Positions 13,268-47,398 of a stretch of 64,000 bases of DNA are shown here, in pieces. Numbering within the stretch: the first letter of the stretch is position 1; every line of letters begins with the position of its first letter. The position numbers and the translations under genes are program-made. Source of the DNA: Mayamaea pseudoterrestris (taxonomy: Eukaryota); NCBI GenBank assembly GCA_027923505.1, contig BROI01000001.1, forward strand, positions 1,860,001 to 1,924,000, read 5' to 3'. The notes under the pieces were generated by a model. It was not told where the DNA came from, did not search any database, and was given only the letters and a program-made list of their open reading frames with translations.

Positions 13268-13439
13268 GGTGGGTGGGTGGGTTTTGTAATCGCGACAAAA
13301 ACGTCCGTTTCTTCTTCCGTCACGTTCTGTCTTAACGGTACTCAACGGAACGAGTCGACGCGAAAGAACAAAACCAAACCACTCAACAAAACCTCTTGCA
13401 TTTGAGATCCTTCATGCATGTTATAGATTCTTACATGGA

Positions 13440-15905
13440 ATGATTCGAGCCAGTTCATTCTGTCGAAGAAGGGTCGAGAAGTCGCATCAAGTTCGTCTCG
13501 TCATTGACGGTTTTGATAGCGACGACGACGATTCGACCGATGCATCATGCTGCTGCTGGGTCGACCATGCGTTTCTGAAACAAACAAATCTTCTTCAAGG
13601 TAGCTTGGTATGGATCAAGTACAAGCAAAGCAAATTTATGGTCAAACTCTTGGTTCGAAAATGCAGCGAGAATAATAGCGCCATGGAGCAAGACGACGAA
13701 ACATCAATTTCACTTGTCAAGCTTTCACCTTTAGCGGCTGCCAATCTTGGCATATATTTGAACGATGCAAGCACTACAAAGCAACTTGCTAGTTTGTCGC
13801 CGTGCCGAGAGAGTCCCGTGGCTGCCGACAATGTGTTTCTACGGCTATACGCACGACCAAACGAGTCGTTGCGGCGGCGGCGGCAAGGCCCCCATGCTCG
13901 CGATGCGACGGCGCCGGTCGGAGACGACGCTAATAATGACGACGACGCTGACAACCCTTGGCCCTTGCCGCTAGCGAATACACTACTGCAGCCAAATGTG
14001 ATCATACGAGTCAAGCGAGAAACGGATGGCGAATCATTTTGGTACCAAGTCTTGAAAATCAACCATGCAGCGAGCAGCAGCAGCTTTAACAACCATTCAT
14101 TGTTTCAATCGAAAGCATCCACAACCTACTCGCTCGAGGCACCGCCCTTTGCGCCGTGCCCACGACTGCCTCCACTGACAAGTCACGCTGCGCCACATCC
14201 AAATTTGAACGAATTGACGAAACGTTTGCAATGCACCCGCGTGTCGCGGCCGGCCGAGTGTTTGCTGCATTTAATGGGAACCAACGACAATCATCACCTC
14301 GACGCACTCGTCGCAGCGGCGGCAACGCAAAGTGGTCGTCGACTCGTCACGCTGCCGCGCGGATGGGCCGCGTACTCGTTTCGTGCGAGTGGCAACTTGG
14401 TGGCAAATGGCGGTTTAATGGACAAGTTGAACGGGCTGCAAGAGGCCTTGGTGCACGCCAAGCGATGCGTTCCGGCATTGTTGCACGTTTGTTTCGACGC
14501 CGTGGAGTTTTCCTCGCACGACGACGAACAGTATTTTGACGAGCAGAGTCGAGTATGGAGCATGCTCATGGAGCAACTGAGTGCTTGCGACTATAGTCAG
14601 TGCAGCAATCACAATGACTACGAGGCATTAGTACCTCCGCTTTTGGTCGTCCTTTCGACTGCGAATCCGCTCAAGCGAGGTCCACTGACGGAGAATTTAG
14701 TGTTTGAGCCAATCCAAGCATCTACGCCGGATAGTGACTACATCAAATATCTGTGGAAGAATGTGCCGAATGTTGAGATGGAACAACTCATGAGCATTTT
14801 GACTGGGCGTCCAGCCTGTGAAATCGAGACGCTACGAGATCAGTTTCTTCAAATAGCTCATACCACCGCTGCCTCAAATTTTCTTAGCGTAATTCAGGAG
14901 CTTGCCAAGGAACTCGACAAGAAGCGTCGCTCTGGTTTGGCACGCATCCCGCAGGTGCAGTGGAGCGACGTGGGAGGACTACAGTCAGTGCGCCGCGAAA
15001 TACTCGACACGATTGAGCTGCCCTTGCAGCATCCTCATTTGTTTTCTGGTCGTCGAAGTGGTATATTACTCTATGGACCACCTGGAAGTGGAAAGACACT
15101 TGTCGCCAAGGCTGTGGCCACCGAATGTAATTTTCCGTTCCTGTCCGTCAAGGGACCAGAGTTGCTGGGCTCTTACGTTGGCGAAAGTGAAGAAAATGTC
15201 CGCACCATTTTCTCTCAAGCCCGGCAGCTGGCCAAAGCAAATCAGATACCGGGATGCGTCTTGTTTTTCGATGAACTGGATAGCTTGGCGCCTCGTCGTG
15301 GTGACCAAGCCAGCGGTGGCGGAAGTGTCATGGATCGAGTCGTGGCGACGCTGTTTGCTGAGCTAGACAGGAATCAAAATGAGGCCGCTGTATACTGTTT
15401 GGGAGCAACGAATCGGCCTGACCTTCTGGATCCTGCTCTGTTACGTCCTGGAAGATTGGATCGATTGGTCTACCTTGGCATGTCGTCGCGTGATGACCAA
15501 ACTAAGATTCTGGCAGCGCAAATGCGAAAGTTAACGCTCGAACGAGATGTTACAGAAATGGCCCAATTAATCACAGATCGCTTACCCGCCAATCTCAGTG
15601 GGGCAGACTTGTCGATGGTTGTCAGCAAAGCGCTCATGCGGGCGACCGAAAGGCTCTGCGACGAAGCTGATCGAGAGGCCGCTCTCGAGCGAAACAAGGG
15701 CGACGAAACCATTTCCGTCGACCAGGTGTTGGCCTCCTGGGATGATGAGCGCTTGACACCTATCGTGACGCTTGATGACCTTCAATGGGCATCGCAGCAC
15801 GTTGTCCCTAGCGTCAGCGAGGTAGAGCTCAAGGGCTACGAGCGATTGCGCGACCAGTTCCAGGTCGAATTATCAGGTTCCACAACTTGTTACGGAAAAT
15901 GCTAA
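13440..15905 (+). CDS. PEX6: Peroxisomal AAA ATPase PEX6-like (full-length copy)
   Basis: IPQVQWSDVGGL, RSGILLYGPPGSGKTLVAKAVATEC, FFDELDSLAPRRG...GGSVMDRVV, LLRPGRLDRLVYLG. Confidence 0.85.
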   Translation: MIRASSFCRRRVEKSHQVRLVIDGFDSDDDDSTDASCCCWVDHAFLKQTNLLQGSLVWIKYKQSKFMVKLLVRKCSENNSAMEQDDETSISLVKLSPLAAANLGIYLNDASTTKQLASLSPCRESPVAADNVFLRLYARPNESLRRRRQGPHARDATAPVGDDANNDDDADNPWPLPLANTLLQPNVIIRVKRETDGESFWYQVLKINHAASSSSFNNHSLFQSKASTTYSLEAPPFAPCPRLPPLTSHAAPHPNLNELTKRLQCTRVSRPAECLLHLMGTNDNHHLDALVAAAATQSGRRLVTLPRGWAAYSFRASGNLVANGGLMDKLNGLQEALVHAKRCVPALLHVCFDAVEFSSHDDEQYFDEQSRVWSMLMEQLSACDYSQCSNHNDYEALVPPLLVVLSTANPLKRGPLTENLVFEPIQASTPDSDYIKYLWKNVPNVEMEQLMSILTGRPACEIETLRDQFLQIAHTTAASNFLSVIQELAKELDKKRRSGLARIPQVQWSDVGGLQSVRREILDTIELPLQHPHLFSGRRSGILLYGPPGSGKTLVAKAVATECNFPFLSVKGPELLGSYVGESEENVRTIFSQARQLAKANQIPGCVLFFDELDSLAPRRGDQASGGGSVMDRVVATLFAELDRNQNEAAVYCLGATNRPDLLDPALLRPGRLDRLVYLGMSSRDDQTKILAAQMRKLTLERDVTEMAQLITDRLPANLSGADLSMVVSKALMRATERLCDEADREAALERNKGDETISVDQVLASWDDERLTPIVTLDDLQWASQHVVPSVSEVELKGYERLRDQFQVELSGSTTCYGKC

Positions 15906-31059: not shown

Positions 31060-31570
31060 TTCATGGTTGAAACGGAACAACAACGGTTGAACGTCACGGC
31101 GTGCCACGCTGTAGCTTCAAACCGTCATCGTATCGTACCGGTATAACGACTCGAGCTTGCCCTTCGACGCACGACGTCGTACGCTATTAAAACACATTCG
31201 CGGGGCGGGGAGGTGGTAGGATCAATGGTTTTACAATGCCTGCAACGAACTTTTGCGCGCTCCGCGCGCACAAAGATTGCCAAACAGCTGACGCAGTATA
31301 CTAAATCAACTGGCCCAGGGTAGAAGATGTCGCAGAACCACCGGCCATTTGTGAGTCATTGGAGTAGACACACGAACGCCAAGAAGTACGGCATGTCGCA
31401 CCAAGTTACACCCATTAATGTCGTGAAGCATGTCCGGATATCTCCTACCACAACTATGTTCTTCTACCAATATTCGACATAGTCCGCGACATTATACTCA
31501 GCGCAAGTGTCGACGGCTATGGCATTCTGAGAAATTTTTAATCGCTACTTGTTGCAATTTTCCATCTAAT

Positions 31571-32953
31571 GACGACGAACAGTATTTCGACGAGCAGAGT
31601 CGAGTATGGAGCATGCTCGTGGAGCAACTGAGTGAATGCGACTATCGTCAGTGCAGTCGTCACCATGACGAAACACTGGTACCTCCGCTTTTAATCATCC
31701 TTTCGACAGCGACTCCGCTCAAGCGAGGCCCACTGGCGGAGAATTTGGTGTTTGAGTCCATCCAAGCATCTACGCCGGATAATGACTACATTAAGTATTT
31801 GTGGAAGGATGTGCCGAATGTTGAAATGGAGCAACTCATGAGCATTTTGACTGGGCGTCCAGCATGTGAAATCGAGACTCTACGAGATCAGTTTCATCAA
31901 ATAGCTAATACCACCGATGCCTCAAATACTGTTAGCGCAATACAGGAGCTTGCCAAGGAACTGGACAAGAAGCGTCGCTCTGGCTTGGCACGCATTCCGC
32001 AGGTGCAATGGAGCGACGTAGGAGGACTTCAGTCGGTGCGCCGCGAAATACTCGACACGATTGAGCTGCCCTTGCAGCATCCTCATTTGTTTTCTGGTCG
32101 TCGAAGTGGCATTCTACTCTATGGGCCACCTGGTAGTGGAAAGACGCTTGTTGCCAAGGCTGTGGCGACCGAATGCAATTTCCCGTTCCTGTCCGTCAAG
32201 GGACCAGAGTTGTTGGGCTCGTACGTTGGCGAAAGCGAAGAAAATGTCCGCTCCATTTTTTCGCAAGCCCGGCAGCTGGCCAAAGCGAACCAGGTACCGG
32301 GATGTGTCTTGTTTTTTGATGAACTGGATAGCTTGGCGCCTCGTCGCGGCGACCAAGCTAGCGGAGGCGGAAGTGTCATGGATCGAGTCGTGGCGACGCT
32401 GTTTGCTGAGCTGGACAAGAATCAAGTTGATGCCGCCGTATACTGTTTGGGAGCTACAAATCGACCTGACCTCTTGGATCCTGCACTGTTACGTCCTGGA
32501 AGATTGGATCGATTGGTCTACCTTGGCATGTCGTCGCGTGATGACCAAACTAAGATTCTGGCAGCGCAAATGCGAAAGTTAACGCTCGAACGAGATGTTA
32601 CAGAAATGGCCCAATTAATCACAGATCGCTTACCCGCCAATCTCAGTGGGGCAGACTTGTCAATGGTTGTCAGCAAAGCGCTCATGCGGGCGACCGAAAG
32701 GCTCTGCGACGAAGCTGATCGAGAGGCCGCTCTCGAGCGAAACAAGGGCGACGAAACCATTTCCGTCGACCAGGTGTTGGCCTCCTGGGATGATGAGCGC
32801 TTGACACCTATCGTGACGCTTGATGACCTTCAATGGGCATCGCAGCACGTTGTCCCTAGCGTCAGCGAGGTAGAGCTCAAGGGCTACGAGCGATTGCGCG
32901 ACCAGTTCCAGGTCGAATTATCAGGTTCCACAACTTGTTACGGAAAATGCTAA
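31571..32953 (+). pseudogene. PEX6: 5'-truncated PEX6 paralog (C-terminal AAA domain)
   Basis: Homology to 14520-15905 begins abruptly at 31571. The frame is open from an ATG at 31430 in unrelated DNA. Confidence 0.75.
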
Positions 32954-39130: not shown

Positions 39131-40093
39131 TCAAAAACCATATGCAAGCTCCAGACTCTGGTAAATTTGTTCAAAGTCGGCGTTGCTTCCAATCGGAACA
39201 GCCGCCGCAACGCTTGCCATAAACTTCTGCAAACGACTCTCGGCAACGCCGTCCATGCGCGCCGCATATACAACACTGGCCAATCCAACCAAGGACTCCC
39301 TGCAGCCAATCATGGTGCCAGCCGTCATGGCCAGCTCGGTCAATGTCAATGCCGTGTTTTGCAGTCGCGTCGACTGCAGTTCTTTTGGAAATACTTGGAG
39401 CAGCAACTTGACATGTGAAGCACTCGTCGGCGGATTCACGCGGTAGTCGAGTCCCTTGAGCAAGTCAAGCTCCGTCAAGCTAACATCCGTTTCCGAATAA
39501 AATCCGCGCGACATGTTGACCAGCGACTCGATTCCAATCTTGCGCGGGTACGGCTCGTTGAGTTTAATCACTAGATAGAGACACGTCATGCTGAATAGCT
39601 GAAAGTCGTCGCGGGTAATGGGAGCCGCCTGCGGCTTGCGTAGTTCGAGAGACACGTAGCGATCCAGCAGGTTCATGGACATTTGCACCAACTCGCGATC
39701 CATGTTGAACGAGTCAACCACGACGGTGGCCCAGTCAATCATTTGATGTCGCCAAAAGCGAAAAGAGTTTGTATTGGCAGTGCTGCTATGAGGTTGTTGT
39801 TGTTGTTGTGACGTAGCTGCTGTCCGAGATTGTGACTGCTGAATGCGGCCAATCTCTTGAACGTCCTGCAGCGATGTGCTCGATAAAGAGTTCTTCATCA
39901 ACGTTTCGTGGCTGCTGGATGAACTTGAATCGTCAGTCAAAACTGTCGAAGCGACTGCTGCAGCTGGAGAAGAAGATACGGTTGGCTGTCTGCTCGTGTA
40001 GTCGTACTTGACAATGTAATGCCGATCCTCGCAGTCGACCAATGCTGCAAGGCTGTCCAGCACGCTATCAATGGTTGCTTGTTCGTTATCCAT
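39131..40093 (-). CDS. Cyclin (diatom-specific type)
   Basis: Cyclin box WRHQMIDW..VVD..DRELV..MNLLDRY..FQLFSMTCLYLVIKL. Confidence 0.9.
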   Translation of the reverse strand: MDNEQATIDSVLDSLAALVDCEDRHYIVKYDYTSRQPTVSSSPAAAVASTVLTDDSSSSSSHETLMKNSLSSTSLQDVQEIGRIQQSQSRTAATSQQQQQPHSSTANTNSFRFWRHQMIDWATVVVDSFNMDRELVQMSMNLLDRYVSLELRKPQAAPITRDDFQLFSMTCLYLVIKLNEPYPRKIGIESLVNMSRGFYSETDVSLTELDLLKGLDYRVNPPTSASHVKLLLQVFPKELQSTRLQNTALTLTELAMTAGTMIGCRESLVGLASVVYAARMDGVAESRLQKFMASVAAAVPIGSNADFEQIYQSLELAYGF

Positions 40094-40517
40094 GATGAGA
40101 AATGTGAGTGATGAGATGAGATCTTTGCAGTACTGTAGCAGCAGGAAAAAGCCTCTTGCACCGATTTTATGATCCGACGAGAAAGAGTTGCACTTGAACC
40201 AAAGGCCAATAAAAATCGGATGTGGTGGATGCAACGTGTGGTTTCAGACGCATCCGAAACTTCCACGTCGACTCATTTTGAAGTTGGGATTGCAACGTAG
40301 TGTCAAAGAAAGTGTACGCAGCTGTTGCGTAGACAATGTGGCGTGACATACGTCGCTGGTCAGCGACGCGATCTGGAGCGTCCGGTAAAACGTCTTTTCG
40401 CCGAAAAATGTCGTACTGGTACTCATTTTTCCGTTGAGAAGCTTTAAAGCCGTTGAATGCTTGGCCGGCGCGGCGAGCCGGCCTGTCCAGCTGTTTCGTA
40501 AGCGGTGAAATCGCATA

Positions 40518-40745: not shown

Positions 40746-41252
40746 TTACCGCTCGTTGCGACGCCAACCGTAGTCAGCATTGAACCTGCGCGTTCGTAAA
40801 ACCTGCTGGATCTTGTCACTAAAGACCTTTAAAGAATACTCCTGGTACTCGTCCCGCGAGGCATAAAGCTCTTGTGGCGTGGCATTCCCTTCAAGGTACT
40901 CGTCAATGTCAGCGTCAAGGAACAAGGATGCTGCAGAACCTTCCCATCGAGGCTCCCCTCGTTCGTTATGCGTTGGTTTTGGATACAAGAGACGATCATG
41001 ATTATACGCTTCAGTATCAGAGACAGCTCGTTCTTTTCGATCTAAAAGGATCTTTCGCAAGCTTCGCAAACGTCCGGCAAACTTGCTGTAGTCCGTTGCC
41101 TGGTACTCGGGACGAAGATTGTATACATCCTTTGGCTTCATGTAATTAGATTCAAGTGGTACTCGTCCGCTTTCCAAGTCCTCCTGTAGAAGCTTCTTTG
41201 CTTGGCTGCATTCCCAGCGGCCGAAGGCCGCTGCCCCTTCATGCGCCGCCAT
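40746..41252 (-). CDS. Transposon accessory protein with two W..S.A..L..D repeats (putative DNA-binding partner)
   Basis: RWECSQAKKLLQED..RPEYQ and RWEGSAASLFLDAD..RDEYQ internal duplication; lies inside the TIRs. Confidence 0.7.
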   Translation of the reverse strand: MAAHEGAAAFGRWECSQAKKLLQEDLESGRVPLESNYMKPKDVYNLRPEYQATDYSKFAGRLRSLRKILLDRKERAVSDTEAYNHDRLLYPKPTHNERGEPRWEGSAASLFLDADIDEYLEGNATPQELYASRDEYQEYSLKVFSDKIQQVLRTRRFNADYGWRRNER

Positions 41253-41798
41253 GGTGAAATACGGAATGCGCGCAAATGTAATGGACGGCCGACACGTCGA
41301 GGAACCCGTCGGAGTCGCCATTGGAGCTACTTTAGCTTCCGGTTGAAACTCTACGTAGATCTCTACGTAAAACAGCTGCGTCACGCGTGTCAATGGTGTC
41401 AGAATTTAAACTGCGCCTCATTGAGCGATATGCTCGCCGCTCCGCGCACAATCGAGCATGGAGCGTCGCCAAGTTGTAGATCCTCCATCTGACTCTTCTT
41501 CTTCTTCTTCCTCCTCCTCCTCCTCCGGCGACGAGTCCGGCAGCGAAGACGAAGACAGCTCTTCCTATCGCTCACCAAGACGCATTGTATCTCCTTCTCG
41601 TTCGAGAGCGGACGGCTTGAAACTTGCAACTCAGCGCAAACTTGTACGTGCGCTCATAGCAAGCGGCGGGCTCCATAACGCTTCTCTTGCTAGTATTTGC
41701 AGACGCGATACTCAAGCTTTTGGTAAAACAAACACTGCTCTTCGCAAGGCGGTCCAAAACAAAGTTCAATTTTGGAAGAACCTTGGTCCGGCAGAATA

Positions 41799-42474
41799 TA
41801 GCAGGTTGCACACGAAAAACAGCAACCAGAGCGATACCTTTACTTGTCATAGTGCATGGTGCCTTGTATGCAGCATATAGTACACTAGCAGACGGAAAAG
41901 TAGCAGCGTGTTTAGAGGTGATATAGCCGGTTATCCTTGGTTCGATTCCGAGGTGCGCTACTTTTAACGGCATAGTGATACTACTTTCTGTTGCATACCT
42001 GCTATGGTAGCGTCCCTATCGAGAGATCTGGACTGAGGCTGCTGGTTCGAGTTGCGATCGAATCAAGCGAAGAAAAAGCAAAAATTCACTGGTTGCACGG
42101 GTTTGTCACGAACGAACGATGGGGAGTCGCGGACCCTGGGGAGTGCACAAAGATGCGCCGAGCCCGAAACGCCGCAGGAAAAACTGAAAAGTGACATTCC
42201 CCCGCGAGACGAAAATGCCAGCTGAAACGGAAGACGAGTTAGCACTATGACGCGCAAAGCTAGGGGAGTAGCAGGTTGCACACGAAAAACAGCAACCAGA
42301 GCGATACCTTTACTTGTCATAGTGCATGGTGCCTTGTATGCAGCATATAGTACACTAGCAGACGGAAAAGTAGCAGCGTGTTTAGAGGTGATATAGCCGG
42401 TTATCCTTGGTTCGATTCCGAGGTGCGCTACTTTTAACGGCATAGTGATACTACTTTCTGTTGCATACCTGCTA
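41799..42474 (+). mobile_element. TRIM (miniature non-autonomous LTR retrotransposon), 676 bp
   Basis: Identical 206-bp LTRs at 41799-42004 and 42269-42474; PBS TGGTAGCG at 42005; PPT AGGGGAG at 42262-68; AATA target duplication. Confidence 0.93.
41902..41960 (+). ncRNA. tRNA-like Pol III module in the 5' LTR (second copy at 42372-42430)
   Basis: T-arm CTTGG-TTCGATT-CCGAG, acceptor-like AGCAGCG/GTGCGCT+A, A-box-like GTGTTTAGAGG, followed by TTTT. Confidence 0.7.
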
Positions 42475-43389
42475 AATACGAGCAAGTCGTTCACGCTTTA
42501 CTTGGAACCAGCTCGACACCGGTACAACAGCCAGCAGCATCCTCTCAAAAAAGTCGCCGTCCATCAACTCAAATTGAGCAGCTTACAATGGATCCTTCTT
42601 CTTCTCTTTCGCTTGTTCGGCCTTGTAAGTTTTTCTCGAGTCGCATCGGTGTGCACACATTGGTGCGCGCTGCGCTTCCTTTCTGTTGCCCTTCAATTGA
42701 TCACAATCGCCTCGTCATCTTGCTCTCTACTAACGCGCTGTATCTTTTCATTAGTGGTCATTCAAGTCGACGTTACCAATCCATGGAATAATGGCGAATT
42801 CAACGTTTGGACCGTTCGGGATTACGAGCTTGCAAACAACCGGGGTTTTATTGACGGGTACGAGATTGAGTTTGCCAACGCCAACCTTCGCGACTTTGCC
42901 AAAGGCAACTATGAAGCGCGCCTTATCAGCAAGAACACGGTAGAGATGCGCCTTCCAATCCTTCCTCTTTTGTTTTTGCAAGACGACGCTTACTTGGGCA
43001 GCGCCATCAATCCGTCCTCCAAACCACGCCTCGATCTTCGAGCCGCCTTTCTTGCCAAGCAGGTACAACAAATGCATCGTTTTGTACATTTGCGCTTCCC
43101 TGATGACATTACCAACAAGTTCTTTCTTCCTGGTGGACGGACCGACGAGACGCTCCTTGACATTGAATCATTCCCCCACACTGGCAGCATCGAGTTGCCT
43201 GAGGCGACTATCCGGAGCCTCATGCTTCGTCAACAACCACTTGTTGCTCATTTATGGCGCGAGACGCGGCTTGTTTGGCGAGTTGCCCTTAATGTTGAGC
43301 CGCGCGTTTCAGTCATGCCTTCTATTCGAGCTGATGGTTCGTCTCAATTGGAATCATTGTTTACCGGCCTTGGAATTTAGTAGTGTACA

Positions 43390-43914
43390 ATGATACTAAC
43401 CGTTGAGTTTCTTGTCTTCTACATTGTCACTTTAGGTATGCACGCTTTCTTTTCTAGCGTATATGGTCCAAGTGCTGCCTCGCAAATGCAAGCAGTTGTT
43501 CCGTTTGTTGCTGCGCCCGTCGCTCCTGCTCCTGTCGCCTCGTCCTCTGCCATTGCGGCTGCTCCTGTCGCCTCCTCTGCCATTGCTGCTCCTACGCTCG
43601 GATCATTGCAGCTTGCGGAACTGCTGGCTGATACTGATGCGCTTATGGTTGATCTTAATCGTCGAAAGCGATTGGCCGCAGAAGTCGGAGAGCGGCAGAA
43701 TGAGGACGAGGACGAGGAGGAGGAACACGTGTCGTTCGAGTCACCGCGAAAGCGCCAAGCAAAGGAGAATGAGCTTGTCTTGCAGCACCAACCTGATCAA
43801 GTATGGGGGGCATTGCCAGTTGAAGATATTGATGTTGCGGAAGAGGAGGAGGAGAAGGAGGACGACCCGTACGACCCGTTTGACTACGGCGTAGATGGCG
43901 ACCCTGATATGTAG
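43390..43914 (+). CDS. Ala/Glu-rich ORF inside the transposon (extra exon or fourth gene)
   Basis: 174-aa low-complexity ORF; splice-like signals near 43436-43457. Confidence 0.35.
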   Translation: MILTVEFLVFYIVTLGMHAFFSSVYGPSAASQMQAVVPFVAAPVAPAPVASSSAIAAAPVASSAIAAPTLGSLQLAELLADTDALMVDLNRRKRLAAEVGERQNEDEDEEEEHVSFESPRKRQAKENELVLQHQPDQVWGALPVEDIDVAEEEEEKEDDPYDPFDYGVDGDPDM

Positions 43915-44091: not shown

Positions 44092-45044
44092 TTACACGTC
44101 AAACAATGCGGAACCATTTTCAAGCTGGTACTGGCAAATCACACAAACAGCTTCAAAGGCAACCTTGTGCTTGTCAATGCCATGGCGGAAGACTTGTTTG
44201 ATGCAGTGGAAGGCTTTAATTCGAGCATTAAACGTCTCGTGGCGAGCGCGAGCGCGGCTTTTAAACTTGCGAACGGGAGCTGGATCACTGGAATTTGGCG
44301 TGCTAATTATGTTCTTCTCTCCACGATAACCATTATCACCGATAACTCTCTTGCCTTGCGGAATCATATCTTTGAGTCCCTGCTCGCGAAAGATTTTAAT
44401 GTCGGGTTGGCCGGCTGGAAACGGTCCGTTCATCCATACAAGCTGGTTGGTGAATACCGAAATGCCAAGCTCGTAATCTAGTGCTGGGCCATTGCTTTTA
44501 TGCGAATAAAAGGCAGGATTCTTGGAGCGAGTGGCATGCTTTGGCTCGTTGATTGAGCAATGGATACCATCCACCGTCATGATGAAGATGGGAGACGCAT
44601 CGTTCGTCATTTCTGGCCAAAGAATCTAAACAAAGGATGAGTAGCGGCACAAAACGTGGACAAACACGATACCGAATGGTTTACCTTTGATTCTTTGAGC
44701 GCTTGGATCCGCTTGGCAAAATAAAAGCACCATTTGCGTGCCGTCTTCTCGCTCATTTGGAACGTGACGGCGAGCTGCTCTTCCGTAGGATAGCGCTTGA
44801 GCCAGTAAATCGTCATCAGAAAATAATCAATAAAGGCTTTTGTAGGATCAATGCGTGCTTCTTGAATGTTTGTTGTTTGTAAGTCTCTCCAGACTTTGGC
44901 GAGTACCTTTGGTTTCGAGCCGAAGTGCGCTTTGAAGCGACTAATTTTTGTCTTCTTGGTCAAGCGTTCCTGCTGCGCTACACTCACATTAAACACTGCA
45001 AGCCCTTTTGCAAGTAGCTCGTTGCGGCCAAGATGTGCAGCCAT
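44092..45044 (-). CDS. Harbinger-type transposase (HTH + DDE_Tnp_4-like), intron 44626-44684
   Basis: YWLKRYPTEEQLA..SEKTARKW; VDGIHC, YSHK, GPFPAG.PD, IGDNGYRG, RARHETFNARIK. Splicing gives K|ILWPEM in frame. Confidence 0.9.
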
Positions 45045-45709: not shown

Positions 45710-47398
45710 ATGACTGCATCAGCAGCTGGTAGTAAAAATGTCGTTCGTCCGCCGTATAGTCGTGCGGAAGAAGCAAACAGCAAAGTCAAGGTGGAGCTGC
45801 GAGAAACGGATGTCTTGTTGGTGAGTTGCGGCTGCCATCGCGACGAACATGTCACGCTTGACTGTTTCATTTTGCTTGTTTGATTACGACATACCAATGC
45901 TAACTTTGTGTGTCGTTGATATTTGTCAATTTCCAGGGTCGAGGAAGTGTCATGGCCAAATTTCCTGGCAATGGTACGTTGATTTGATTCATGACGGATG
46001 AGAAAGTGAATACCATCGTCAAACGCAATTTGTTCCTCAAACATTGTCATTTGCATTAACCCTTTTTTTACAGTCACATTCCGCTGTCTTCTATGGGGCT
46101 TTCGCAAAGAGTACCAGAATGCCGCCATGAAGGACAAGTCAATCATTGTCGACAAGGTGATTCGACTCGTTGGCAGGCAAACTCCTCCAGGACGCTTTCT
46201 AGAATGCTCCAACGCGAAAGGCAGCGACGTGAATGAACCCCATATCATGAATAGCAAAGCTTCGAACTGGAGCTACCACATTGCTCATCCGCGCCGCGTC
46301 TACGACAAGGTGAGCGCGACGCTGCGCGCCAAGCTCATGGATCCCTTTCGCGACTTGGATGAAACGGAAAAGATAAAAATTCACCGCTTTGTAGATAGCT
46401 TTAACAGATCTTTTGCCAAGAGTTTGGGCAACAAGAAATGTATTTCCGAAACGAATAAAAAGAGTCGCCCATCTAAAAAATCCAAGGGTATCTCGGTCCT
46501 TGGTTTGACTTTCCGACCGAGACGCAAGGAATCCATTGATGATACGGCATCCGAGTCATCCTCGTCGTGTGGCGACGAAAGGGTTGCGGCAGCGCCTGGA
46601 TTGACATTTAACAAGAGAGTATCTGGATCGAAGAAGGAGTCTAGTTTGAATATTGTTGCGCCCGCGCCTCCAGCGGAACTGGTGTTGCAGGCGGTGGATG
46701 TAGTTTGTCACGGAGACGCCATTGATGACTATGTCAGCGTCTGCGACACGTTTCCAGGCAATGTAGCTTTTACCAACTTTGTCGCAGGCTACGCAAAGGA
46801 GTACTGGGAAATGACCAATGTCGTCAAGTCCAGTCGCGAACAAAAGATGCTCTTCTTTGACCGCATTACCAAGGACTATGCCGCCAAGGAACCAACGTCG
46901 CGCTTTGTCGTTTTGGTTCGCAATACCAAGTTGGAGGAGCGACGCTGCAACTATGCGAGTCTTGACTTTATTCACACCAAGATTTACAGCAAGCTCTGCC
47001 TTGCGCGTGCGACGCAAGCCATTTGCGCCAAGGGCGCTCGAAGCGATGTCCGTCAGCCACGACTGACACTAGCGGAGCGTACCAACAACAATGGCGAGGT
47101 ACCGCAGCTTGTGTGCAACAAGCGACAGCTGGAATCAAAGAATAATCAAATGGAGGATGCCTCTGCTTCATTGGGCGCGCAGCCGGCGTTCAAGAGGCCG
47201 AGGCTTGGTGTATCGCATGCAGCAAACGTTAAACAATCTGCTGCTACAACTACGAGTGAGGAGACGCAACCGGCTCGCATCAATCTCCTTGCGATTGATG
47301 ATGGTTTTCTTCCAGAGGCGACAACCTTTTTTGAATGGCAAGCATTCATGGCCAATGCGCAAGAATATCTTGCTGCTGCTTGCGCCAAACAAAATTGA
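45710..47398 (+). CDS. DUF6824-like diatom protein (exons 45710-45820, 45937-45973, 46074-47398)
   Basis: DVLL|GRG....FPGN|VTFR...EY...PPGRFLE, plus a second DVVC..FPGNVAF copy. Confidence 0.8.

Follow-up and report, generated by a model that had tools for sequence, protein, structure and literature searches.

We analysed a 64,000-nucleotide stretch of the genome of the diatom Mayamaea pseudoterrestris (contig BROI01000001.1, positions 1,860,001 to 1,924,000; this whole stretch is called the window, and positions are counted from its first letter), in which a short non-coding element bounded by long terminal repeats (LTRs) lies upstream of a protein-coding gene. A direct-repeat search and reading of the sequence place the element at positions 41799–42474 (676 nt), where a 5′ LTR (41799–42004) and a 3′ LTR (42269–42474) enclose an interior of 264 nt (42005–42268); all features of the element described here are on the forward strand. 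The two LTRs are direct repeats of 206 nt each, 100% identical and spaced by 470 nt, and the same sequence is present as an exact 206-nt unitig in one of the public sequencing runs described below (X1). Each LTR begins with TAGCAGG and finishes with CCTGCTA, which form 7-nt inverted repeats. A 4-bp target-site duplication, AATA, flanks the element on the left (41795–41798) and on the right (42475–42478). The primer-binding site (PBS) TGGTAGCGTCC (42005–42015), which has a single exact match within the window, begins on the first base past the 5′ LTR, and the polypurine tract (PPT) AGGGGAG (42262–42268) adjoins the 3′ LTR.

The interior contains an A-rich tract (42070–42084) and no coding sequence recognisable in repeat, BLAST or Pfam searches. 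None of the five open reading frames (ORFs) of the element (58–144 aa, measured from stop to stop) has a Pfam match at E ≤ 1, and a BLAST search of the LTR and the interior against the 64-kb window returned self-matches only, the next best match being at most 18 nt long. No poly(A) signal is evident on reading the LTR sequence. This is the order of LTR, PBS, interior, PPT and LTR that a first-pass annotation of the window had described, and its naming of the element as a miniature LTR retroelement is confirmed: with short LTRs, a PBS, a PPT, a target duplication and no gag or pol coding sequence, the element is a miniature terminal-repeat retrotransposon (TRIM). We also observed that a 21-nt stretch of the LTR (41835–41855 and 42305–42325) is 81% complementary to positions 42242–42262, directly before the PPT. 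An RNA hairpin enclosing the PPT and the start of the LTR is therefore possible, and so is chance.

Eight public sequencing runs (X1 to X8) hold part of positions 41300–42975, and none of them is recorded as RNA. Four (X1, X2, X5 and X6) were compared with positions 41000–43400, at the level of contigs and unitigs only, while the pairs X3/X4 (share 0.31) and X7/X8 (share 0.28) lie outside this comparison. X1 and X2, which come from two studies, cover all 30 bins, and the even cover of the intergenic flanks suggests that both are whole-genome DNA runs. The junction of the left flank with the LTR is present on an unbranched contig in each of them (41391–41826 in X1 and 41391–41825 in X2), and the junction of the 3′ LTR with the right flank is present in both on a contig spanning 42447–43400. 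Flank unitigs lie at depths of 27.7–30.7 in X1, whereas the exact 206-nt LTR unitig has a depth of 3938 and an interior unitig (42003–42152) a depth of 1980; in X2 the flanks have depths of 74.5–90.7 and an interior unitig (42145–42251) a depth of 5549. For each flank equivalent there are thus about 61–74 interiors and about 130 LTRs (X1, X2), identical at the level of 31-mers.

From these depths we estimate a family of about 65 near-identical full copies, a figure that expresses unitig depth rather than a copy number, a point that weighs against it. Since LTRs and interiors stand at about 2:1, solo LTRs and long tandem arrays should be few. The loose ends at the LTR termini carry several different sequences, which is what other insertion sites should produce. 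The uniform unitigs of high depth, together with the identical LTRs of the copy at 41799–42474, point to a very recent burst of the family, and the activity proposed in the first-pass annotation is upheld in this sense: identical LTRs, an intact target duplication and unitigs at about 65 (interior) and 130 (LTR) times the flank depth all look recent. The window itself holds a single copy, which would fit a non-mobile structure produced by a local 470-bp tandem duplication or by faulty assembly. Such an origin has a negligible probability when the PBS, the PPT, the inverted termini and the 4-bp duplication are all properly placed, both junctions of flank and LTR occur on contigs of two runs from two studies, and LTR and interior unitigs reach 61–130 times the flank depth with several different flanks.

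Each LTR carries a segment which resembles a transfer RNA (tRNA) gene. The most regular part of this segment is the T arm CTTGG-TTCGATT-CCGAG (41936–41952, second copy 42406–42422), the sole hairpin kept in every fold. Its B box GGTTCGATTCC (41939–41949 and 42409–42419) matches at 11 of 11 positions and holds GGTTC. The B-box pattern GGTTCGANNCC occurs at two places in the 64 kb, both in the LTRs, against 0.32 expected. The canonical T arm and B box claimed earlier for each LTR are perfect. A TATA-like heptamer, CATATAG, is predicted from the sequence at 41874–41880 (second copy 42344–42350), 22–28 nt before position 41902, and a run of four T residues (T4) is found downstream at 41962–41965 and 42432–42435; both had been noted in the first-pass annotation.

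How the remainder of the segment is to be folded admits at least two answers. ARAGORN at a lowered threshold proposes an 83-nt cloverleaf with all arms (41879–41961, second copy 42349–42431). Its acceptor stem, AGTACAC/GTGCGCT, has six of seven pairs; its D arm has GG in the loop; the anticodon arm is weak, its loop of 8 nt (ttag) yielding a 4-base 'anticodon', and there are stem mismatches; and a long variable arm of 4 bp is present, as in class II tRNAs. After the T arm of this cloverleaf follow a discriminator A, then C and then TTTT, which puts the T4 run one base past the discriminator. The alternative, favoured in the first-pass annotation, is a 59-nt module (41902–41960, second copy 42372–42430) which has almost no anticodon arm and a bulged acceptor stem. 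RNAfold of positions 41900–41965 does choose this bulged stem, AGC-A-GCGU / GUGCGCU, and prefers the 59-nt parse once AAAA and TTTT on either side are folded along with it. The two parses use different 5′ strands for the acceptor stem. The 59-nt module therefore stands as a possible parse, but one with which the 83-nt parse competes.

The 83-nt cloverleaf passes 98% of the default ARAGORN threshold and fails 99%. In 20 shuffled windows of 64 kb, ARAGORN made no call at the default and 14 calls at the 90% threshold. Of 2000 controls that retained the T arm while all other LTR sequence was dinucleotide-shuffled, 45 passed the 98% threshold, and because of this the arms beyond the T arm give modest support to the tRNA likeness (p about 0.02). 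Several results weigh against it. ARAGORN at its default threshold calls no tRNA in the LTR, and 20 of the same 2000 controls pass this default, which the real LTR fails. Rfam searches at E ≤ 10 with 1101 nt and with 111 nt gave no tRNA match, the best matches being small nucleolar RNA and microRNA models at chance level (15–16 bits). A tRNA-finder check of the LTR, which had been recommended in the first-pass annotation, turned out negative with ARAGORN at its default threshold and with Rfam. The fold energy is not better than that of shuffles (z from −0.99 to +1.38), and the minimum-energy folds of the LTR are not cloverleaves; with z-scores near 0, we rejected thermodynamic folding as support for a tRNA. 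A scan for bacterial promoters and terminators was likewise discarded, being irrelevant here.

The A box is at chance level as well. Against the A-box consensus, the best matches are 7 of 9 positions at 41901 (TAGCAGCGTG) and 6 of 9 at 41886 (TAGCA...CGG, 41886–41895), scores which 5.9% and 36%, respectively, of 5000 random 40-nt windows attain. The A-box-like segment noted in the first-pass annotation is thus present, but its match is of a quality that chance supplies. The LTR has three occurrences of TAGCAG, one where it begins (41799–41805) and two farther in, at 41886 and 41901; these inner two are the two best A-box candidates. Of the earlier claim of tRNA likeness, the perfect T arm and a cloverleaf at the 98% threshold remain, whereas the A box is at chance level and Rfam gives no tRNA match. 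Judged from its sequence, the 3′ half of the unit derives with high probability from a tRNA gene, and the unit as a whole probably does so too. It is not a functional tRNA gene, because neither ARAGORN at its default nor Rfam calls it and because it has an 8-nt loop and mismatched stems.

The active lineage is uniform, and conservation can be seen only through a few diverged contigs. In all four variant contigs, whose summed depth of 104 in X1 equals about 3–4 flank equivalents, TA is changed to AT at 41886–41887 (5′ LTR coordinates), and the TRGC of one A-box candidate is therefore lost. One contig of 634 nt is 90% identical over 41858–42005, with 15 differences in 148 nt. It has two changes in the B box (41944 G>A and 41949 C>T) and one in the T stem (41953 G>A), and it has lost the T4 run (T>A at 41962 and 41964). 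Nine of its 13 listed differences are inside the 83-nt unit, about the LTR-wide rate; with 9 changes in 83 nt against 15 in 148, the tRNA-like unit is not better conserved than its surroundings. The first-pass annotation had named a lack of conservation of the boxes and stems among copies as something that would speak against its proposal, and the boxes are indeed changed in these contigs. This weighs mildly, and not decisively, against a function of the boxes. The contigs may simply represent dead copies, given that their copy number is low and that C>T and G>A changes abound in them.

Elements of a comparable kind have been described. Helenus is the name given to TRIMs with tRNA-derived sequence in their LTRs, and TRIMp3 has been proposed as a collective name (Kojima 2024, PMC10886601), so that Helenus and Cassandra, both invoked in the first-pass annotation, are indeed published classes. 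According to the same source, the use of RNA polymerase III (Pol III) is unvalidated for Helenus. The diatom element shares with Helenus the short non-coding LTR structure with PBS, PPT and a target duplication of 4–5 bp, a tRNA-like segment with a GGTTC box B in each LTR that is unlikely to encode a working tRNA, an LTR with little relation to the LTR of the element presumed to be its autonomous partner, and a length of 676 bp within the Helenus range of 311–1263 bp as given there. It differs in several respects. Its host is a diatom, while Table 1 of that survey lists as Helenus hosts fungi, six animal phyla and Selaginella, and no stramenopile. Box A is weaker here, with A after TRGC where Helenus is described with Y (TRGCY, YGG). 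Many Helenus units are reported to be called by tRNAscan-SE, whereas the diatom unit fails with ARAGORN at its default and with Rfam. A T4 run directly follows the diatom unit, and the diatom PBS pairs with a tRNA 3′ end, in contrast to most fungal Helenus, which according to the survey pair with an anticodon loop. Judged from its sequence, the element qualifies as Helenus-type by Kojima's operational definition: box B and the TRIM features are present, the support for tRNA derivation is modest and box A is at chance level.

The Cassandra elements of plants are likewise TRIMs of 565–860 bp with a segment from a small RNA gene and Pol III signals in each LTR (PMC10886601, PMC13570524), the latter only predicted in the diatom element. 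In Cassandra, however, the segment is 5S-derived, and Pol III transcripts have been reported, whereas the diatom element is known from sequence alone and its segment is tRNA-like. No 5S match was found among the four Rfam matches of the element region at E ≤ 10, and the element is therefore not a Cassandra. Retrozymes have a TRIM-like size and layout and a circularly permuted RNA (PMC5680766), a form that one run of unspecified kind (X6, described below) recalls here. As the same four Rfam matches at E ≤ 10 include no hammerhead, the element is not a retrozyme.

Which RNA polymerase serves the element can be argued in more than one way. In type 2 promoters, the B box binds TFIIIC. An intact B box of 11/11 would be expected to do so whatever its origin, and we regard binding of TFIIIC with production of a short Pol III RNA from the tRNA-like unit as a serious possibility that falls a little short of an even chance. 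It is a further step to suppose, as the first-pass annotation did in proposing a Pol III-driven family, that Pol III also makes a unit-length RNA used for reverse transcription, and this we hold to be rather unlikely. In such a TRIMp3 scheme, itself unlikely on the present sequence, TFIIIC would sit on the B box and the weak A box, transcription would start at about 41870–41902, read partially through the T4 run of the 5′ LTR and end at that of the 3′ LTR; the repeated end region (R) would be the tRNA-like unit, and an uncapped RNA without poly(A) would be the template. Its most specific form, in which Pol III makes both a short RNA and a 540-nt read-through template for a copia partner with the tRNA-like unit as R, appears doubtful to us.

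The perfect B box and T arm, the TATA-like heptamer 22–28 nt upstream of 41902, and a length of 676 nt that falls within both the Helenus and the Cassandra ranges are in keeping with Pol III. So is the LTR, which apart from its last 25 nt is unrelated to that of the candidate partner, as Kojima's account expects for TRIMp3. The T4 run stands one base past the discriminator, and no other run of at least four T residues exists on the forward strand of the element, but the latter fact carries no information, since 52% of 2000 shuffles have no such run either, and it was rejected as support. The chance-level A box tells against Pol III. The T4 run of the 5′ LTR, too, would halt the enzyme after about 65–90 nt, and the boxes and the T4 run are altered in the diverged contigs, in which the 83-nt unit is not better conserved.

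A start by RNA polymerase II (Pol II) about 25 nt past CATATAG is equally compatible with all of the observations. Under this explanation the element would be a Pol II TRIM with a TATA-like start near 41905, and the tRNA-like segment would be a passenger relic, either a captured tRNA gene or the head of a short interspersed element (SINE). We consider it plausible without calling it probable. CATATAG is at the usual TATA distance from 41902–41908, yet it is a weak TATA, and the LTR has no evident poly(A) signal. A relic would account for a degenerate cloverleaf with an 8-nt anticodon loop and no Rfam match, and for boxes that, in the diverged relatives, have changed as much as other parts of the LTR; the intact B box, with its expected binding of TFIIIC, sits less well with it. 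TRIMs are described as mostly Pol II elements, named TRIMp2 in Kojima's survey (PMC10886601). Among the loose ends listed for X6, none shows poly(A) added at a position within the LTR, which again does not favour Pol II.

X6, which carries the same organism label as X1 and is of unspecified kind, has 15.7 million letters in total and no cover of the flanks. It contains a 453-nt contig of depth 871 that runs unbranched from 42080–42268 through the LTR into 42005–42062, that is, it goes back 470 nt. This interior-LTR-interior path is consistent with an element-length RNA that has both ends inside the LTRs, and it is equally expected from one-LTR circles or tandem copies. X6 is most likely an RNA run, because DNA giving a depth of 871 on about 65 copies should also assemble the flanks; against this, the run is not recorded as RNA. 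The element is probably abundant as RNA. Run contigs carry no information on RNA starts, ends or strand. At the A-rich tract 42070–42084 the X6 contigs break, with A runs of 15–23 or more (in X6 only, among the rows listed), and one piece with many lengthened A runs reaches a depth of 694.7 as compared with 871 for the main contig; a unitig of X1 spans the tract in the reference form. The A-run pieces could be A-run variants among the copies, priming on the tract, or tails. More speculatively, in favour of Pol III, the piece could be a tail-less RNA caught by the internal A tract.

The same contig is a circular permutation of the element, in which 206 letters fit on either side of the step back by 470 nt, and it raises the possibility of a unit-length and possibly circular RNA. 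Here tRNA-processing enzymes would cut both tRNA-like units, and the released 470-nt RNA would be ligated, making the element a ribozyme-free analogue of retrozymes, which are described as TRIM-like with circular RNAs of 600–1000 nt (PMC5680766). We consider this very improbable. Linear transcripts from R to R, one-LTR DNA circles or tandem copies would produce the same contig in a run whose kind is unspecified, Rfam at E ≤ 10 gave no hammerhead or other ribozyme match, and cutting at the tRNA-like unit would strip R from the template.

A candidate for the autonomous partner is found in X5, a run from the study of X2 with another organism label. A 5454-nt contig of this run (depth 16.6) matches the element only at 41980–42015, with four differences; the matched part comprises the last 25 nt of the LTR and the PBS. 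Beyond the match it continues with TGTCGCGAGATCTGGAG..., which resembles the CTATCGAGAGATCTGGAC... of the element, and a short stretch near the PBS, GAGATCTGGA, is common to both. The 30 letters preceding the match are unlike the TRIM LTR. Loose ends at 41980 and 42015 are likewise present in X1 and X6. Sharing of the LTR end, the PBS and the leader without the LTR body is the usual sign of an autonomous protein supplier. Because the LTR end, the PBS and the start of the leader are common to both while the LTR body is not, the 5454-nt contig is likely the autonomous partner of the TRIM, although the contig is known from the match and the adjoining letters, which counts against the assignment.

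The observations can be assembled into a scheme in which an RNA would start within the 5′ LTR and end within the 3′ LTR, in agreement with the interior-LTR-interior contig of X6, and its reverse transcription would be primed by a tRNA able to pair through its 3′ end with TGGTAGCGTCC. The primer may be the initiator tRNA, because the complement of TGGTAGCGTCC gives an acceptor arm of the A1:U72 type followed by CCA, which we take to be characteristic of that tRNA. AGGGGAG would then prime the second strand, and the proteins would be supplied in trans, presumably by an element of the Ty1/copia type. Integration would have produced the 4-bp AATA duplication, and the identical LTRs imply that the copy at 41799–42474 is very recent. 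The choice of polymerase left aside, we have good confidence that the element is a young, high-copy TRIM of Helenus type mobilised in trans.

A supplier of the copia type would be in line with what is known of the host group. The genome of Mayamaea pseudoterrestris, a diploid strain, has been predicted at 27.2 Mb with 19% repeats, mainly Ty1-copia as summarised in its report (PMC9724779). Diatom copia elements are described as making 4–5 bp duplications (4 bp, TTCC, for Blackbeard), and some CoDi families lack TG/CA ends (PMC2806351). With the diatom Ty1/copia elements (CoDi, Blackbeard), as characterised in that source, whose insertions are recent and haplotype-specific, the TRIM shares the 4-bp duplication and ends other than TG/CA, but these elements are autonomous and several kb long while the TRIM has no coding ORF; they are a likely source of its proteins.

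The insertion is located next to a gene. The ORF downstream of the element has one protein match, 99% identical over 94% of the 208 queried residues, to the hypothetical protein MPSEU_000066800 of Mayamaea pseudoterrestris (365 aa; NCBI name), which also bears out the stramenopile host supposed in the first-pass annotation. The model of this protein begins MDPSSSLSLVRP, corresponding to the ATG at 42588, 110 nt past the right AATA. The annotated first exon (MDPSSSLSLVRP...) spans 42588–42624 on the forward strand and is followed by an intron at 42625–42754 (GTAAGT...TTAG). When the element and one AATA were removed in silico, the frame of the ATG at 42588 was open upstream to 41425, that is, for 161 codons before the ATG, with a Met at 41458. 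By our arithmetic, a random frame is open for at least 161 codons in about 4 of 10,000 cases. With no stop codon interrupting this frame at the restored site, the insertion very probably split an older and longer first exon of MPSEU_000066800, of which 41458–41798 would be the interrupted part, in frame with the gene on the forward strand. The element thus breaks an open frame and lies 110 nt ahead of the annotated start. That the frame was coding is deduced from its continuity; against it, a search of longer and similar-length proteins gave no homologue for the part upstream.

The run contigs compared (41391–43400) include no near-identical empty site. A 1495-nt contig, with a depth of 13.6 in X1 and 58 in X2, below that of the flanks, is about 82% identical in pieces on either side of the element. 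It is too short to hold the element, and either it is a paralogue of the host gene or it represents a strongly diverged allele that lacks the element.

That a diatom should carry a TRIM is no novelty as such, because putative TRIM or large retrotransposon derivative (LARD) elements have been annotated in Phaeodactylum tricornutum (P. tricornutum; 27 copies, 7,291 bp; PMC5859163) and are mentioned for Ectocarpus (PMC3145265). They too are non-autonomous LTR elements of the same supergroup, but they stand in those reports as pipeline counts, and the sections that list them mention no tRNA-like LTR, burst or partner. No diatom TRIM with tRNA-like LTRs was found in the open-access literature searched. 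The element is thus of a known type in a host group new for it, with no stramenopile Helenus in the literature searched, and the family would extend the Helenus type to stramenopiles.

TRIMs carrying small RNA genes (Cassandra, Helenus, Ajax) pose the question whether a Pol III transcript can be the template of an LTR retrotransposon. If the Pol III reading were true, TRIMp3, so far described from fungi, animals and plants, would for the first time be found in another group, and about 65 near-identical copies in a culturable alga of roughly 30 Mb would make a workable system for testing Pol III templates. Such tests are favoured by the dozens of near-identical copies (as judged from unitig depth), the small genome and a candidate partner recognisable by the common primer-binding region. 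Should the tRNA-like segment be no more than a relic, the element is an ordinary, well-preserved TRIM. It would in addition exemplify a diatom gene disrupted very recently by an insertion, and it serves as a warning that tRNA look-alikes borne by LTRs can confuse tRNA and gene annotation.

Outside the DNA runs of the host, X5 contains the element as a 500-nt contig of depth 15.6 with no flank, about 0.3% of the X2 depth. This is probably library carry-over rather than the element of another species; runs from the study of X2 labelled as other organisms (X5, and also X3 and X4) contain the element without flanks. Patterns of the element gave no match in viral contigs, and one of two such patterns gave none in contigs of prokaryote genomes. 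One locus in metagenome contigs and, for the other pattern, one locus in a metagenome-assembled genome of Nitrospinota match only 25–28 nt around the search pattern and were rejected as chance matches.

The TRIM is situated in a gene-dense region and not in a repeat island. An ORF with a cyclin N-terminal domain (39131–40243, reverse strand) and an ORF with a DUF6824 domain (46010–47398, forward strand) are its neighbours, and 1.6 kb downstream of it lies an ORF (44092–44625, reverse strand) with a DDE_Tnp_4 domain of a PIF/Harbinger-type transposase (E 3e-11), which adds another type of mobile element beside the host gene. Elsewhere in the window, the ORFs 13290–15905 and 31427–32953, both on the forward strand, have an identical pattern of AAA and AAA_16 domains, and chance calls of ARAGORN at low threshold occur in duplicate (15807/32855 and 18203/33253). 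The repeated AAA/AAA_16 ORFs and the paired calls together suggest that the window holds a segmental duplication of several kb.

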